Shown here piece by piece: positions 6,668-45,170 of a stretch of 64,000 bases of DNA. The stretch lies in the sequence record NC_054929.1, one strand, 5' to 3'. The notes beneath the pieces were generated by a model. The model had not been told where the DNA came from. It saw only the letters and a program-made list of their open reading frames with translations, and searched no databases. The DNA comes from Escherichia phage PE37. The position numbers and the translations under genes are program-made. Every line of letters starts with the position of its first letter. Position 1 is the first letter of the stretch.

Positions 6668-10790
<4,123 letters not shown>

Positions 10791-16556: not shown

Positions 16557-16586
16557 GTTTACTTTAAGATTTGGATGGTATATAAT
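16557..16586 (+). promoter_or_regulatory. early promoter for rnh
   Basis: GTTTAC 16557-16562, 18-bp spacer, TATAAT 16581-16586; AGATTT/AAATCT inverted repeat brackets the -10. Confidence 0.5.
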
Positions 16587-16615
16587 AGAAATCTCACTAA
16601 TTGAACGAGGTTCAT

Positions 16616-20398: not shown

Positions 20399-20424
20399 GG
20401 GGACCCTAGAGGTCCCCTTTTTTA
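20399..20424 (+). terminator. intrinsic terminator after gene 32
   Basis: GGGGACC-CTAGA-GGTCCCC followed by TTTTTT. Confidence 0.7.
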
Positions 20425-20448: not shown

Positions 20449-20478
20449 GTTTACATCCTTGTCCTTCCATGGTACTAT
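20449..20478 (+). promoter_or_regulatory. early promoter
   Basis: GTTTAC, 18-bp spacer, TGGTACTAT; shares an 18-mer with the motA promoter. Confidence 0.6.
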
Positions 20479-20793: not shown

Positions 20794-21180
20794 ATGGAAG
20801 TTGGAAAAACTTATATCATTAACCCTTTATTTAAAAATGACTTTGCTAACGAGTGCCGTTGCAATGTAATGATGCTAAATTTAATAGAGAAGCACGGACC
20901 TAGTTTTGTTGTAGATGAAATGGAAAGTGATGATTGTGCCGGTGAATGTGTGGTACATGTAACTATGGAAGATGGCACTGAATACATGGCGAGTGGCCCA
21001 CTTGAGACGTATTTTGAGATTTACTCTGAAGAATTCAAATACTTTACTGAGGTAACTTTAGAAAAGCCTCAATCCGCTAATGAAGGTATAGTTTCTGGCG
21101 TAACAAAAATTCACTGCATTGTTGACGAAAACAATGTAGATGAAATCATTGAACTTTTGCGAAAAACTTTCAAAAAGTAG
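20794..21180 (+). CDS. hypothetical acidic protein (128 aa)
   Basis: ORF with GAGGAAA SD. Confidence 0.5.
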   Translation: MEVGKTYIINPLFKNDFANECRCNVMMLNLIEKHGPSFVVDEMESDDCAGECVVHVTMEDGTEYMASGPLETYFEIYSEEFKYFTEVTLEKPQSANEGIVSGVTKIHCIVDENNVDEIIELLRKTFKK

Positions 21181-21209
21181 TTTACAGAAGGGTAGTAGTG
21201 TGATACTAT
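21180..21209 (+). promoter_or_regulatory. early promoter
   Basis: GTTTAC 21180-21185, 18-bp spacer, TGATACTAT; hairpin 21190-21214 encloses the -10. Confidence 0.5.
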
Positions 21210-21235
21210 TACCCTATCAACTTAAGGAGAATAAA

Positions 21236-21478
21236 ATGAGATTACAACGTCAGAGCATCAAAGATTCAGAAGTTAGAGGTAAATGGTATTTTAATATCAT
21301 CGGTAAAGATTCTGAACTTGTTGAAAAAGCTGAACATCTTTTACGTGACATGGGGTGGGAAGATGAATGCGATGGGTGTCCGCTTTATGAAGATGGAGAA
21401 AGCGCAGGATTCTGGATTTACCATTCTGATGTTGATCAGTTTAAAGCTGATTGGAAAATTGTGAAAAAGTCTGTTTGA
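21236..21478 (+). CDS. hypothetical protein (80 aa)
   Basis: ATG 21236 with AAGGAGA SD; track ORF 21140 start lies inside upstream gene. Confidence 0.5.
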   Translation: MRLQRQSIKDSEVRGKWYFNIIGKDSELVEKAEHLLRDMGWEDECDGCPLYEDGESAGFWIYHSDVDQFKADWKIVKKSV

Positions 21479-23272: not shown

Positions 23273-24133
23273 ATGAAACAATACCAAGATTTAATTAAAG
23301 ACATTTTTGAAAATGGCTATGAAACCGATGACCGAACGGGCACAGGAACAATTGCTCTGTTCGGTACTAAATTGCGTTGGGATTTAACTAAAGGTTTTCC
23401 TGCAGTAACAACTAAAAAGCTCGCCTGGAATGCATGCATTGCTGAGCTAATATGGTTTTTATCAGGAAGCACAAATGTCAATGATTTGCGATTAATTCAA
23501 CATGATTCATTAATTCAAGGCAAAACAGTCTGGGATGAAAATTACGAAAATCAAGCAAAAGATTTAGGATATCATAGCGGTGAACTTGGTCCAATTTATG
23601 GAAAACAGTGGCGTGATTTTGGCGGTGTAGATCAAATTATAGAAGTTATTGATCGTATTAAAAAACTGCCAAATGATAGGCGTCAAATTGTTTCTGCGTG
23701 GAATCCAGCTGAACTTAAATATATGGCATTACCGCCTTGTCATATGTTCTATCAGTTTAATGTGCGTAATGGCTATTTAGATTTGCAGTGGTATCAACGT
23801 TCGGTAGATGTTTTCCTCGGTCTTCCATTTAATATTGCATCATATGCTACGTTAGTTCATATTGTAGCTAAGATGTGTAATCTTATTCCGGGAGATTTGA
23901 TATTTTCTGGTGGTAATACTCATATCTATATGAATCACGTAGAACAATGTAAAGAAATTTTATGTCGTGAACCTATGGATTTATGCGAATTACAATTAAA
24001 ATTTCCAGATGAATTTGATGAATGGAACACAGAATCGCAGGTATTTTGGTTGAGTCAATTTGCAAAGCCTCATAATTTTGTTCTTAACAACTATGAATCA
24101 CATCCTCCTATTAAAGGAAAGATGGCGGTGTAA
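23273..24133 (+). CDS. td: thymidylate synthase (uninterrupted, no intron)
   Basis: 286 aa continuous ORF; ThyA motifs including active-site PCH. Confidence 0.95.
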
Positions 24134-28209: not shown

Positions 28210-29797
<1,588 letters not shown>

Positions 29798-29800
29798 GCT

Positions 29801-29830
29801 GTTTACAAGTCCCTCATGTTGTGTTATAGT
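29801..29830 (+). promoter_or_regulatory. early promoter upstream of alc, with RBS-complementary arm in the spacer
   Basis: GTTTAC 29801-29806, 18-bp spacer, TATAGT 29825-29830; CCTCATGTT 29812-29820 is complementary to AACATGAGG 29845-29853, which covers the alc SD. Confidence 0.55.
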
Positions 29831-29861
29831 AATCTTACTGACATAACATGAGGACTTTATG

Positions 29862-32845: not shown

Positions 32846-33123
32846 ATATGTTTCCGACTTATTCTAAAATTGTAGAAGTAGTGTTTAGTCAAATTATCGC
32901 TAATAATATGTTTGAAAAGCTTGATAACGCAGCCGAGCTTCGAATTCATGCTCAAGTGACTCATGTATTGAACACTTTGCTTCCAGACCAGGTGGATTCT
33001 GTTGCCATTACGCTGTATCCAGGTTCCGCGCATATCATTGTCGTATTCGGTCTTGATGCTGAGTTAGTTATCAAAGGCGATATTCGTTTTGAATCGCAGA
33101 CAGCAGAATTCAAAGCAATTTAA
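32842..33123 (+). CDS. hypothetical protein (93 aa)
   Basis: ATGA-coupled ORF. Confidence 0.5.
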   Translation: MNMFPTYSKIVEVVFSQIIANNMFEKLDNAAELRIHAQVTHVLNTLLPDQVDSVAITLYPGSAHIIVVFGLDAELVIKGDIRFESQTAEFKAI

Positions 33124-33125
33124 TA

Positions 33126-33155
33126 GTTTACTTTACGGTAGAGTTGTGATATTAT
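33126..33155 (+). promoter_or_regulatory. early promoter
   Basis: GTTTAC 33126-33131, 18-bp spacer, TGATATTAT; GGTAGAG/CTCTACC inverted repeat brackets the -10. Confidence 0.5.
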
Positions 33156-33184
33156 AGCTCTACCAAACAAATGAGGAAAACAAA

Positions 33185-33424
33185 ATGCTGCTAAGTGAAA
33201 AACCGATTACTGTTAAAGAATTCCAAGAAAAAGTTAAGCTATTTGCACAGGAATTGGTAAATAAGGTTTCTGAACGATTTCCTGAAACATCGGTTCGTGT
33301 TATTACTGAAACTCCTCGTTCAGTATTAGTAATTGTGAATCCAGGTGATGGCGATCAAATATCGCATCTTAAATTAGATTTTGATGGATTAGTTGAAGCA
33401 CAAAGGGTGTATGGCGTACTATGA
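33185..33424 (+). CDS. hypothetical protein (79 aa)
   Basis: GAGGAAAA SD then ATG. Confidence 0.5.
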   Translation: MLLSEKPITVKEFQEKVKLFAQELVNKVSERFPETSVRVITETPRSVLVIVNPGDGDQISHLKLDFDGLVEAQRVYGVL

Positions 33425-36090: not shown

Positions 36091-36094
36091 GTTA

Positions 36095-36120
36095 AGGACT
36101 CCTTCGGGAGTCCTTTTTTA
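36095..36120 (+). terminator. intrinsic terminator
   Basis: AGGACTCC-TTCG-GGAGTCCT followed by TTTTTT. Confidence 0.7.
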
Positions 36121-36143: not shown

Positions 36144-36176
36144 GTTTACAGTATGGTTCCTTTGTGATAGTATTAT
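36144..36176 (+). promoter_or_regulatory. early promoter
   Basis: GTTTAC 36144-36149 and TGATAGTATTAT -10 region; imperfect inverted repeat spanning -10 and SD. Confidence 0.5.
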
Positions 36177-36200
36177 CTTACACAAACAAAGGAGAATAAA

Positions 36201-36533
36201 ATGAAAACGATTAATCTGAACGCTGCAGTTAAGACTAAATGCTTCAATGGTAAATATGATGAAACTATGTGGTTCTTAATGGCAGTTGAAGGTGATATTA
36301 TTGAAGTAGAAACAACAGAAGGTATGGGAACAGATTTCACCTTTACAATTCAAGTTCATAATTTCTTTACTGGTTGGATTTATGAATTGAATACAGTAAT
36401 CGTTGGAAAAATTGAACAAAATGAATTAGGCGAATGGTATTATGTTACAGCTCGCCAACGTGCCGAACGTTTGATTGAGAAGATGAAAAAAGTTGGTAAA
36501 CTTGACATGAAGCACTGGAAAGTAGTAAAATAA
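36201..36533 (+). CDS. hypothetical protein (110 aa)
   Basis: AAGGAGAA SD then ATG. Confidence 0.55.
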   Translation: MKTINLNAAVKTKCFNGKYDETMWFLMAVEGDIIEVETTEGMGTDFTFTIQVHNFFTGWIYELNTVIVGKIEQNELGEWYYVTARQRAERLIEKMKKVGKLDMKHWKVVK

Positions 36534-36535
36534 TT

Positions 36536-36564
36536 GTTTACTTTGGTACAGGATATGATATTAT
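36536..36564 (+). promoter_or_regulatory. early promoter
   Basis: GTTTAC 36536-36541, 17-bp spacer, TATTAT; perfect 8-bp inverted repeat GGTACAGG/CCTGTACC (36545-36552 / 36568-36575) brackets the -10. Confidence 0.55.
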
Positions 36565-36601
36565 ATACCTGTACCGCAATTAAACATCTCGGAGAATAAA
36601 A

Positions 36602-36967
36602 ATGAACTACATCAACTTTGAACGTAAATATGTTTCTAATGGTATTGCAGGTTCTATTGATACTATTTGCCTTTGGAAACATCAAAATGGATCAGTATGC
36701 GAAATTGAACAGTATATGACTCCTAACTACGTTTATATGCGATTTGAAAATGGCATCACGGTTTCAATCACAATGGAAGGTTCAAACTTCAAAATCGCTC
36801 TGGATGATGATTTTCGTCAACGCGATTTAGGGACCCATCCTTGCTGGAATGGCGCTAATCGTAAGCTTCTGGTTAAAACTTGGATTCGTCATATTTTGAG
36901 TAACAGAGCTAAACCTGAGCATCTTGAAGCAATCTTTGATGTAGTTCTCAACGAATTTGATATTTAA
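36602..36967 (+). CDS. hypothetical protein (121 aa)
   Basis: GGAGAATAAAA SD then ATG. Confidence 0.55.
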   Translation: MNYINFERKYVSNGIAGSIDTICLWKHQNGSVCEIEQYMTPNYVYMRFENGITVSITMEGSNFKIALDDDFRQRDLGTHPCWNGANRKLLVKTWIRHILSNRAKPEHLEAIFDVVLNEFDI

Positions 36968-43052: not shown

Positions 43053-45110
43053 ATGGAACTTATTACAGAATTATTTGACGGCGCTTCGGCGCCGGTTGTT
43101 AACTTAAATCCTAAGCATAAAATACCACAAATTTTTGCTATTCAAGCCGGCGAAGAAAGCGTGCTTCCTGGATTTAGATTTTGTACATACACCTCTGGTG
43201 GTGATACGAATAAAAACGTTAAGCCAGGCGATAAAATGATGCATATCGTAATGATAGGTGTTAATGAGAAATTATCGTTAGTTAAGCTTAAAAACTTGGG
43301 TGGAAATCCAATTGGTGTCATTAATGCGGTTTTTGATACTGCTCTTCAAACAATGAAACAGTATAAAATTGATGCATGTTTATTCCGCGTACTAAAAAGT
43401 AAAACAAATGGCGCAGCTCGTCAAATGCAAGTTATTGCTGACCGTTTAGTACGTACTAAAGGAGCAGGTCGATATGTTCTTTTAAAGGAAATCTGGGATT
43501 ATGATAAAAAGTATGCATATATTATGGTTTACCGTAAAAATGCCAATTTAGAAGACATTCCAGGTGTACCTCCTATTTCAACTGAGTTATTCACAAAAGT
43601 TGAATCAAAGGTTGGTGATGTTTATGTAGACGTTAAAACAGGTAATGCTGTTCCTAAAGCTGTTGCTGTTGCCGCTTCTATTGCTTTAGAAAATGATAAG
43701 CGCACGGATCAAGCTGTTATTCAGAAAACTAAAATTAGTCGTCGATTAGCAGCACAAGCTCAATATTCTACTGTCGATGCTTCACTTCAGGGTGATAGCT
43801 TCGCCGCTAAGAAATATCAAGAGTTTGAATCTAAAGTTCCGGTATATAAAGCAGAAGGACCAATGAACTCTGGCGTTATTCAGATTGGTTCAAACTTCAG
43901 CAAAGGAGCTATCGGTGGTATGAGAAGTGCTTCTCGTTTTAAATCTAATGATTATGAACTAGAAAGTTTCCGAAATCATATTGCATTAGCCCATGCACGT
44001 TTACGCGATCCATCTATCAAGCTGCAGAGCGATACATCATATCAAGGTTCCCAGGAATATTTAAAGAATAAAGACTTCTTTAATTACAAAACTGATAAAA
44101 TTTTAAGCGATCTTGCTGATATTAATATTTCTAATAGTTTTGATGTTATTAAGAAAATTATCAATGATTTAGTTAAAGGTTCTAAAGCTACACCAGATGA
44201 AAAGACAGCTATTATTCAATTTGTAATGAATGGAATTTATAAATTAATTGATGAATCCGCTGCTCAGGCGTATGAATATGCAAGCACTGAAGTAACTCCA
44301 AAAGGATTAACTCAGGCTGAGTCCGATGTAATTGAAGATTATTGTGCAGATTCATATGTTGAAATGAACTCGTTCCTCTTGGGTAAACCAGATTCTACCC
44401 GTGAAGAATACATGGAACGAGCTATTAAACACATCGAGACAATGGATTCTGCCTTTGCCAAAGGATCAGTTCTTCCTCCAGGAACTACGCTTTATCGTGG
44501 ACAAGAAGTTACCTTTAAAACTTTACGTCATAATATTGAAAATAAAATGTTCTACTTCAAGAACTTCGTATCCACATCGCTTAAACCAAATATCTTCGGT
44601 GAGCATGGTAAAAACTATATGGCTCTAGATGATTCCGGTGCAGTATTTTCTGGTGAAGGAGAAGGTTCCGTTGATGCTGAAGATTTAATGCATATGGGTA
44701 GTCATTCTGCTTATGCGAATGAAGATGCTGAAACTAGCGTGGGTATGGTAATAAAAGGAGCTGAGCGAATTAAAGTTATCGTTCCAGGTCATTTATCAGG
44801 ATTTCCATCAGAAGCTGAAGTTATTCTACCGCGTGGAATTTTGCTGAAGATTAATAAAGTGAGTACTTACTTTATGAAAGAAACTGCTTATAACAAGTAT
44901 CTAATCGAAGGTACAATCGTTCCTCCTTCTGAACAATTAGAAGAATCAGTATATGATGGCGACCATCTAATGGAAACTGGTGAAGTTCGTCCAATGGCTG
45001 GATTTAATCAATTCCTTGTAGAAGAATCAAAAGAAGAGGAAAACGAAGTTTCTCAAATCTTAGCTTCTTTGGTTAACATCAACGGAATGTCTAAAAAGTT
45101 CAAGATGTAG
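43053..45110 (+). CDS. second Alt-like ADP-ribosyltransferase paralog
   Basis: 685 aa; N-terminal ~235 aa about two-thirds identical to Alt by eye; divergent middle; retains R (LYRGQ), STS (FVSTSL) and ExE (EAE) motifs; AAGGA SD 6 nt upstream. Confidence 0.8.
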   Translation: MELITELFDGASAPVVNLNPKHKIPQIFAIQAGEESVLPGFRFCTYTSGGDTNKNVKPGDKMMHIVMIGVNEKLSLVKLKNLGGNPIGVINAVFDTALQTMKQYKIDACLFRVLKSKTNGAARQMQVIADRLVRTKGAGRYVLLKEIWDYDKKYAYIMVYRKNANLEDIPGVPPISTELFTKVESKVGDVYVDVKTGNAVPKAVAVAASIALENDKRTDQAVIQKTKISRRLAAQAQYSTVDASLQGDSFAAKKYQEFESKVPVYKAEGPMNSGVIQIGSNFSKGAIGGMRSASRFKSNDYELESFRNHIALAHARLRDPSIKLQSDTSYQGSQEYLKNKDFFNYKTDKILSDLADINISNSFDVIKKIINDLVKGSKATPDEKTAIIQFVMNGIYKLIDESAAQAYEYASTEVTPKGLTQAESDVIEDYCADSYVEMNSFLLGKPDSTREEYMERAIKHIETMDSAFAKGSVLPPGTTLYRGQEVTFKTLRHNIENKMFYFKNFVSTSLKPNIFGEHGKNYMALDDSGAVFSGEGEGSVDAEDLMHMGSHSAYANEDAETSVGMVIKGAERIKVIVPGHLSGFPSEAEVILPRGILLKINKVSTYFMKETAYNKYLIEGTIVPPSEQLEESVYDGDHLMETGEVRPMAGFNQFLVEESKEEENEVSQILASLVNINGMSKKFKM

Positions 45111-45139
45111 TTTACAAGGCCCTCATGTTGTGTTATAGT
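45110..45139 (+). promoter_or_regulatory. early promoter with RBS-complementary arm in the spacer
   Basis: GTTTAC 45110-45115, 18-bp spacer, TATAGT 45134-45139; CCTCATGTTGTG 45121-45132 is the exact reverse complement of CACAACATGAGG 45151-45162, which covers the SD. Confidence 0.55.
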
Positions 45140-45170
45140 AGTCTTACTGACACAACATGAGGAACACAAA

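Follow-up and report, generated by a model that had tools for sequence, protein, structure and literature searches.

Selected hairpins bracketing the −10 of early promoters in a T4-like phage, with a possible role at cistron boundaries

The sequence examined is a stretch of 64,000 nucleotides (nt) of Escherichia phage PE37 (sequence record NC_054929.1), hereafter the window, and the subject is a set of inverted repeats that bracket the −10 element of early promoters on its + strand. We find that three of four such repeats belong to a widespread class of promoter hairpins whose structure is selected, specific to the sense strand and fixed in position. The window is T4-like (Tequatrovirus) and its + strand is the early-transcription strand; the locus is collinear with the T4 pseT-cd-31-rIII-30.x-ligase region, and EC121, wV7 and many other Tequatrovirus genomes share 96-99% identity with the region round the hairpins. 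The + strand has 13 instances of the pattern GTTTAC-N15-19-TAnnnT and the − strand has one, where 4.3 would be expected for both strands together; in T4 the strict form GTTTAC-N17/18-TGnTAnnnT has 31 sites on the early strand and none on the opposite one. At all four sites an early-type promoter of the form GTTTAC-N17/18-(TGn)TAnnnT lies directly 5′ of a Shine-Dalgarno (SD) sequence and an ATG. The features are as follows.

36536-36564, + strand: early promoter of the 30.7 orthologue; −35 GTTTAC at 36536-36541, TG at 36556-36557, −10 TATTAT at 36559-36564
36544-36576, + strand: bracket hairpin P1; 5′ arm GGTACAGG at 36545-36552, 3′ arm CCTGTACC at 36568-36575
33126-33155, + strand: early promoter of the cd.2 orthologue; −35 at 33126-33131, −10 TATTAT at 33150-33155
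33137-33164, + strand: bracket hairpin P2; GGTAGAG at 33137-33143, CTCTACC at 33158-33164
21180-21209, + strand: early promoter of an frd.1-type open reading frame (ORF); −35 at 21180-21185, −10 TACTAT at 21204-21209
21187-21218, + strand: bracket hairpin P3; GGGTAGTAG at 21190-21198, CTATTACCC at 21206-21214, with one G·U pair
16557-16594, + strand: rnh promoter with a 6-bp repeat; −35 at 16557-16562, −10 TATAAT at 16581-16586, AGATTT at 16567-16572, AAATCT at 16589-16594

Each of the first three promoters follows closely on the stop codon of the preceding ORF. The 30.7-orthologue promoter, equivalent to the T4 promoter with its −35 at 129918 (written −35@129918, as for other T4 sites below), lies behind a TAA at 36531-36533; the predicted RNA helix of P1 spans 36544-36576 and is followed by the SD GGAG at 36591-36594 and the ATG at 36602. 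The cd.2-orthologue promoter, named Pe133295 in the T4 record and located between cd.2 and cd.3, has its upstream stop at 33121-33123, its SD at 33172-33176 and its ATG at 33185. The frd.1-type promoter is preceded by a TAG at 21178-21180 and followed by an ATG at 21236. The 3′ arms of the three hairpins finish 8-15 nt 5′ of the SD.

A sequence-only reading of the window had described all four repeats as palindromes with the −10 region as their loop. Its coordinates proved exact, and the bracket pattern holds, although only partly for P3, whose 3′ arm starts within the −10 hexamer TACTAT and takes in its last 4 nt. Not all four palindromes stood equally well when the RNA from −35 to about +15 was folded and compared with 200 shuffles per site. 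The minimum free energies of the P1, P2 and P3 sites (−16.1, −16.3 and −15.9 kcal/mol; z −5.6, −4.9 and −4.1) were reached by none of the 200 shuffles in each case, far beyond chance. The rnh site is at chance level, with −3.1 kcal/mol, z +0.6 and 151 of 200 shuffles folding as well. Stems of 6 bp are expected by chance in 4-9% of promoters, and in the orthologous loci of related phages (designated by L numbers) the rnh stem is broken by an A·C mismatch in the close relative L125 and absent from the more distant L126, L127 and L129. We therefore rejected this short, AT-rich and unconserved repeat as a member of the class. Stems at the rnh promoter are weak or inconsistent across relatives, and the distant relative L131 carries a different 6-bp bracket, ACTCAG/CTGAGT, at its rnh promoter (~100 nt upstream of position 10001), which casts a small doubt on full dismissal of the site. 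Read-through across the rnh promoter, which had been considered as a negative control free of read-through, could occur, because the T4 record lists a minus-strand primer RNA inside gene 34.

In order to place these hairpins in a wider set, five viral-contig scans (queries Cd, RegB, DexA, RNase H and Frd) were used to collect loci from T4-like phages. The main analysis takes in the loci that came from the first three scans, together with T4 and the window (117 loci, 2.3 Mb in all); those found with RNase H and Frd were used only in orthologue checks and in a control on late and middle promoters. The promoter definition returned 501 early-strand sites versus 7 on the other strand across all loci, and 422 unique promoters were grouped into 239 families. 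An exact-stem test compared the −35/−10 spacer with the 14 nt 3′ of the −10, and in the swap control each spacer was paired with the sequence downstream of another promoter.

Perfect stems around the −10 reached 7 bp or more in 7 of the 31 strict T4 promoters, compared with 1.5% of swapped, 1.2% of shuffled and 3% of reversed partners (binomial p = 3e-7). For stems of at least 8 bp the count was 5 of 31, against 0.1%, 0.3% and 0%, respectively (p = 4e-8). The window by itself gave 2 of 10 promoters with stems of at least 7 bp versus 1.1% in the control (p = 0.005). Among the 239 families, 26% reached a helix score of at least 8, compared with 1.9% of swap controls, and 16% a score of at least 10, compared with 0.5% (p about 1e-50). 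As the sequence-only reading implied, palindromes around the −10 of GTTTAC promoters are thus more frequent than expected for sequence of this composition. Late and middle promoters of the same loci showed weak enrichment at a score of at least 8 (6% versus 2.4% and 13% versus 2.8%, respectively). At least 14 of 33 early promoters of T4 have a selected hairpin that uses the spacer as its 5′ arm, seven of them brackets and seven covering the SD; the T4 frd.1 promoter is an eighth bracket if the RNA fold is counted. The promoters of the internal-protein genes ipI, ipII and ipIII (−35@73939, 65799 and 66498) carry some of the strongest bracket hairpins found.

The spacer-armed helices fall into two types. 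In 45 families the 3′ arm begins 0-3 nt past the −10 (bracket type), in 28 families the 3′ arm covers the SD (SD type), and only 7 families show neither arrangement. A single register accounts for 31 of the 45 bracket families. With a spacer of 18 nt, its 5′ arm runs up to −17 and its 3′ arm sets in at −6, which leaves the extended −10, nTGnTAnnnT, as the loop; three further bracket families with 17-nt spacers have the equivalent register. The start site was placed by spacing, ~7 nt 3′ of the −10. Bracket stems measure 7-13 bp with a median of 10, and the helix ends at a median of 10 nt past the −10 (about +3/+4), 7 nt 5′ of the SD. The constant position of the hairpin follows from its arms filling those promoter segments that promoter function leaves unfixed. 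RNA started at the promoter itself has none of the 5′ arm and little of the 3′ arm, so that the hairpin can form only in read-through RNA.

Comparison of orthologous promoters showed that different sequences implement the same pairs. At the 30.7 site, the T4-type genomes and several other lineages share the stem GGTACAGG(T)(T)/(A)(A)CCTGTACC, with L030 and L036-38 carrying GCTGATTGAGTGT/ACACTCAATCAGC, L031 and L039 TTGGTGTAGGAGT/ACTCTTACACCAA, L040 GGTGAGGGTCT/AGACTCTCACC and L041 TTTGTAGGAGAC/GTCTCCTACAAA. The P1 stem is kept or lengthened in relatives with compensating changes, and L007 has a G·U variant; in other lineages a spacer-to-SD helix replaces the bracket at this site, and one lineage has neither. 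Canonical pairs fill 95% of the cells at the 30.7 site in the common register, compared with 35-44% when the arms are slid by 1-3 nt; this register analysis was scripted, as MAFFT had put the gap for spacer length inside the 5′ arm. The cd.2 site behaves alike (89% in register versus 17-41% slid), with several pairs changed on both sides and stems CGGTAGGAC/GTCCTACCG, GGTGGAGTT/AACTCTACC or CCGGAAGT/ACTTCCGG in the same register in relatives. In the window and T4 the frd.1-type promoter carries GGGTAGTAG/CTATTACCC, but L139, L141 and L143-147 have AGGCTATGG/CTATAGCCT, a compensated stem likewise with one G·U.

Pairs were also counted after 31 bracket families had been aligned by position without gaps. 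Each of the 12 pairs changed on both sides, two-sided changes occupied 107 cells versus 36.8 in shuffles (0 of 500 shuffles reached 107), and the covariation score was 0.75 in register versus 0.10-0.19 in slid registers. This set was chosen for its helices, so that the counts attest to one set of pairs being implemented by many sequences and are no proof of the helices themselves, whose existence is shown by the swap controls on unselected families. The earlier proposal that the stems differ in sequence, keep one place relative to the −10 and reflect selection on structure is borne out by the common register, the compensated orthologous stems and the excess of two-sided changes. The idea that the repeats are chance palindromes of AT-rich sequence, which applies to the rnh repeat at 16567-16594, is scarcely credible for P1, P2 and P3 or for the class at large: the swap and shuffle controls, the covariation and the fold z-scores all reject it.

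The mismatches inside the helices indicate which strand folds. Counted once per family and position, the internal non-Watson-Crick positions of bracket helices are 14 G·U (G·T in the DNA), no A·C and two others. In a neutral palindrome, transitions yield G·T and A·C equally. The observed 14 to 0 departs from that 1:1 expectation (p = 6e-5) and also from the spurious helices of the swap control, in which G·T made up 62% of G·T plus A·C (p = 0.001) and 25% of all mismatches (p = 3e-7). Additionally, sense RNA folded better than antisense RNA (paired Wilcoxon p = 0.002-0.008). Since an A·C in the sense strand corresponds to a G·U in the antisense strand, pairing has been selected in the sense strand only, which argues against a cruciform or a symmetric protein site, and the sense-only wobble together with the positions of the arms speaks for read-through RNA. 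We hold with considerable confidence that the sense strand carries a selected hairpin, one most likely formed in read-through transcripts, and RNA appears to be the folding molecule. Of the roles offered in the sequence-only reading, a feature of read-through RNA is the one that the data favor, given a 5′ arm upstream of the start site and mismatches that are G·U and never A·C.

That reading had also offered a DNA cruciform, a protein-binding palindrome and modulation of promoter melting. A function of this kind in duplex DNA would suit a repeat that is centred on the promoter and fixed relative to the −10, but the fixed position is already explained by arms that fill the sole unconstrained promoter segments. 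The stems are unrelated in sequence and so offer no common binding site, loops of 10-15 nt are unfavourable to cruciform extrusion by textbook background, and a cruciform or dimeric site needs two-strand symmetry whereas the mismatches are G·T in the sense strand only. The cruciform and the binding site are disfavoured on these grounds, promoter melting found no support, and we regard duplex-DNA function in any of these forms as highly improbable.

The surroundings of the hairpins bear on what they may do. The distance from a co-directional upstream stop codon to the −35 has a median of 2 nt where a hairpin is present (10 nt or less in about 80%) versus 23 nt in hairpin-less families, and a hairpin is found in 44% of tight junctions versus 15% of loose junctions without a terminator (p = 5e-4). 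A canonical terminator within 110 nt upstream occurs in 1 of 45 bracket families and in 1 of 28 SD-type families versus 34 of 159 hairpin-less families (Fisher p = 0.0014 and p = 0.03, respectively). The window contains two examples of the reverse arrangement.

20399-20417: intrinsic terminator, GGGGACC..GGTCCCC followed by T6, ~30 nt upstream of the early promoter at 20449
36094-36115: intrinsic terminator, AAGGACTCC..GGAGTCCTT followed by T4, ~30 nt upstream of the early promoter at 36144

Neither the promoter at 20449 nor that at 36144 has a bracket hairpin, which fits the near-exclusivity of the two arrangements across families.

On the basis of these features, we propose that the three hairpins are promoter-embedded intercistronic RNA hairpins, a Tequatrovirus form of the promoter-early stem-loop (PeSL) cassette, with a function at cistron boundaries included; taken as a whole we put this proposal at about an even chance. 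The 5′ arm would occupy the spacer where its sequence is unconstrained, at about −26 to −17, and the 3′ arm the discriminator and start-site region, about −6 to +4, while the sequence-constrained extended −10 (nTGnTAnnnT) would stay as the loop. RNA started at the promoter itself would begin inside or past the 3′ arm and so have no hairpin; the hairpin would form in transcripts entering from an upstream early or middle promoter. In such read-through RNA it would lie directly 3′ of the stop codon of the upstream gene, marking the end of the cistron, and may stand in for a terminator hairpin, setting or protecting the upstream message at its 3′ end by holding back 3′ exonucleases, by acting as a U-tract-independent attenuator or in both ways. 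It may also occupy the pyrimidine-rich promoter RNA and keep it off the next gene's ribosome-binding site, as the predicted SD accessibilities given below would suggest. Placement inside the promoter would follow from the upstream stop codon abutting the −35, which leaves no other room. REP elements and the processed 3′ hairpins of phage T7 early RNA are intercistronic stabiliser hairpins separate from promoters; by analogy, the window hairpins resemble them as U-tract-less hairpins after a cistron in polycistronic RNA and as possible barriers to 3′ exonucleases. A cistron-end hairpin is the simplest account of the combined absence of terminator character, exclusivity with terminators, adjacency to stop codons and replacement of one hairpin type by another, and a boundary function therefore seems plausible.

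Several observations weigh against this proposal or limit it. The hairpin tails GCAATTAAAC, AAACAAATGA and TATCAACTTA have no U-tract, the bracket families have A-rich tails with a mean of 1.4 T in the 9 nt past the stem, and a terminator scan of the window flagged none of the four repeat sites, though it found true terminators. Canonical intrinsic termination is thus unlikely, and that reading was rejected. The exclusivity of hairpins and terminators is confounded with intergenic length. About half of the promoter-bearing junctions show no significant structure, so that the element is optional rather than obligatory. A link to RegB was also considered and rejected, since the downstream GGAG that forms the RegB site is not enriched (42% versus 55%) and gives no specific tie to RegB processing. 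The families come from related phages, and the counts, though reduced to families, are not fully independent. A hairpin of the non-template DNA strand is conceivable as the folding molecule, as G·T wobble is tolerated in single-stranded DNA too. Finally, a literature search found no paper that maps the 3′ ends of T4 RNA.

The relation of the hairpins to the downstream ribosome-binding site raises a different explanation, in which they direct translational traffic: the spacer arm would decide whether the downstream gene is translated from read-through mRNA, with brackets keeping the SD open or blocking ribosomes that re-initiate from the adjacent stop, and spacer-to-SD hairpins closing it. A stop codon at a median of 2 nt from the −35 would bring the terminating ribosome up to the 5′ arm, and the predicted SD accessibility shifts differently by class from the promoter's own transcript to read-through RNA: 0.60 to 0.49 for brackets, 0.55 to 0.06 for the 28 SD-type families and 0.59 to 0.32 without a hairpin. 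Accessibility in read-through RNA is predicted to be higher with a bracket than without a hairpin (p = 6e-5), and shuffling of the bracket 3′ arm in silico lowered it to 0.38. The logic of a promoter inside a hairpin is also established for the T4 late genes e, soc, 49 and I-TevI (PMC3014915, PMC2988022). However, the effect of the bracket hairpin is modest and wholly predicted, stems of 10-13 bp are needless for mere avoidance of SD complementarity, and the switching of hairpin type between orthologous genes is easier to explain if both types do the same job. We consider translational control of this kind unlikely as the main explanation.

A broader and rather doubtful reading, which we put forward tentatively, is that the early-promoter spacer serves as a programmable RNA arm, pairing in read-through RNA either with the start-site region, leaving the ribosome-binding site open, or with the SD, closing it. 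If this were true, the promoter sequence would encode, gene by gene, whether expression relies on the gene's own immediate-early promoter alone or draws on longer transcripts too, and would also set where upstream messages end. A further, speculative step is that the embedded extended −10 makes up for the U-tract by causing a sigma70-dependent pause or a collision with promoter-bound polymerase; if so, the hairpins would be U-tract-independent attenuators. The window has four hairpins of the SD type, with stems of 8-13 bp, in each of which the spacer is complementary to the downstream Shine-Dalgarno sequence and the ribosome-binding site is predicted to be hidden in read-through RNA.

50-61 paired with 83-94: SD-type hairpin, −35 at 40
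29812-29824 paired with 29841-29853: SD-type hairpin, −35 at 29801
36158-36165 paired with 36186-36193: SD-type hairpin, −35 at 36144
45121-45133 paired with 45150-45162: SD-type hairpin, −35 at 45110

Among known systems, the closest is PeSL. Arbiol et al. 2010 (PMC2839356) define PeSL in phages phi1/RB49 as an early promoter with a stem-loop, mostly located between −35 and −10 or overlapping the −10, and note G-T pairs; one stem-loop lowered lacZ expression as strongly as rrnB T1, and roles as terminator or attenuator and in recombination were proposed. We count this stem-loop position and the lacZ effect in favour of the boundary proposal. The same paper cites Repoila et al. 1994 for analogous, AT-richer promoter/stem-loop elements at T-even internal-protein loci. 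Comeau et al. 2014 (PMC4122927) extended PeSLs to PST/T4 and nt-1/KVP40 and placed the PST/T4 stems 'just upstream' of the promoter, a description that fits the window terminators at 20399 and 36094 and not the −10 brackets. PeSL cassettes adjoin indels. Like PeSLs, the window cassettes are intergenic segments that hold an upstream stop, an AT-rich stretch, the early promoter, a stem-loop, and an SD with its ATG; a strong sigma70-type promoter with a 17-18 nt spacer is present at all four sites and a stable stem-loop at three. Unlike the phi1/RB49 stems, which consist of G/C tracts and include one strong terminator, the window stems are of mixed sequence and have no U-tract. The three hairpins nevertheless meet the structural definition of PeSL, in its −10-overlapping subclass, and we file them as members. 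In the text of the two PeSL papers (PMC2839356, PMC4122927) we found no description of a single register, the G·U asymmetry, terminator exclusivity or stop-codon adjacency, nor of absent U-tracts together with terminator exclusivity.

Gene content differs beside two of the cassettes, cd.2 and frd.1, where indels or swaps adjoin the promoter. In the close relative L006 (8913-9432), whose Cd protein is 100% identical, an extra ORF of ~170 codons lies between the cd.2 cassette of promoter, hairpin and SD and the cd.2 gene, with the left junction of the insertion in the 5′ untranslated region just past the SD (compare window 33185). The GGGTAGTAG/CTATTACCC cassette (window 21180-21240) precedes an MRLQRQ-type ORF in the window and an MFAPYI-type ORF in T4 (−35@146143, L001), L138 and L140; the MRLQRQ ORF of L139 and L141 has the AGGCTATGG cassette. 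Judged from the sequences, the cassettes of the frd.1 region look as if exchange or deletion had joined them within the 'tatcaac' stretch that is conserved round the start site.

These differences suit the shuffling hypothesis of the PeSL papers, in which the stem-loop acts in DNA as a recombination linker that promotes exchange of gene cassettes and its RNA structure is incidental; indels and mini-circles flanked by PeSLs are reported in both papers (PMC2839356, PMC4122927). Homologous exchange needs shared sequence, however, and the stems are the most variable part of the cassette, while the −35, −10 and start-site consensus would give homology with no palindrome needed. Selection for pairing of one strand is also indicated by mismatches that are G·U only and by the compensatory changes. 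We regard recombination as the primary function of the stems as improbable.

The T4 late genes offer a second comparison. Control by a promoter inside a hairpin is described for e, soc, 49, I-TevI, segB and mobE (PMC3014915, PMC2988022). As in the e/soc/I-TevI type, the window promoters lie in the 5′ half of the hairpin, their own transcripts lack the 5′ arm and only read-through RNA can fold. In the late type the SD or AUG lies under the 3′ arm and the genes are served by late promoters ('all late genes'), whereas the window promoters are early and the 3′ arms of the three hairpins stop short of the SD. The SD-covering version does occur at the window early promoters at 40, 29801, 36144 and 45110. 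The two T4 reviews (PMC3014915, PMC2988022) give promoter-in-hairpin control for late genes only and leave early-promoter hairpins unmentioned, as does Nolan et al. 2006. A third comparison is with the bacterial promoter-coupled intrinsic terminators of Fletcher et al. (2026 preprint, 10.64898/2026.08.19.745784), which likewise combine a termination-type hairpin and the promoter of a tandem unit in the same short intergenic DNA and are enriched where space is limited. In that system the stem-loop lies on the −35 and a T-tract in the spacer just 5′ of the −10, with RNA 3′ ends mapped ~10 bp before the start site; the window hairpins have an arm on either side of the −10 and a helix that runs to about +4, and their spacer holds the 5′ arm and has no T-tract.

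The hairpins are a real and pervasive layer in the organisation of T4 early genes, one that has been described only in part, and do not amount to an element of a new kind. Descriptions of this layer come from the PeSL papers alone, where the stress was on recombination, and the general reviews of T4 transcription and mRNA decay that were consulted do not mention it. A boundary or insulator function, if true, would explain how messages are kept separate in a compact genome with strong tandem promoters without giving up space to terminators, and why the spacers of these promoters are conserved or co-vary. For phage engineering, the spacers of T4-like promoters should not be taken as neutral, and the element offers mutational targets that spare the promoter consensus, as one arm can be disrupted and then compensated.

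Two further candidates for structure within the brackets were rejected. Pairing of the −35 hexamer with the tail past the 3′ arm, an idea that came from longer folds of two sites, is not enriched, with a mean of 0.93 paired −35 nt versus 1.34 with swapped and 1.94 with shuffled tails. A selected self-pairing loop, in which the extended −10 pairs with the −10 hexamer, has the same closure energy in bracket as in hairpin-less promoters (−9.35 versus −9.32 kcal/mol, p = 0.54); the folds show a tetraloop-like closure that is generic to TGTGnTAnnAT.

Rfam 15 at the gathering threshold gave no match anywhere in the window, group I introns included. The td and nrdB ORFs (23273-24133 and 28637-29797) are apparently uninterrupted, with 286 and 386 codons, and the phage therefore seems to be without the T4 td and nrdB introns. 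A third arrangement, a small hairpin wholly within the spacer (CCACAaggaTGTGG; CACCAcggaTGGTG) with its 3′ arm overlapping the TG of the extended −10, was seen at T4 −35@50973 and −35@2458 (L003, L002) and at the cd.2-site promoters of L010-L012. Finally, the window cassettes of promoter and SD hairpin at 29801-29853 and 45110-45162, ~15 kb apart, are near-identical, GTTTACaag(t/g)ccctcatgttgtgtTATAGT, and have T4 counterparts at −35@136336 and −35@123093; they form a dispersed repeat that could support recombination.

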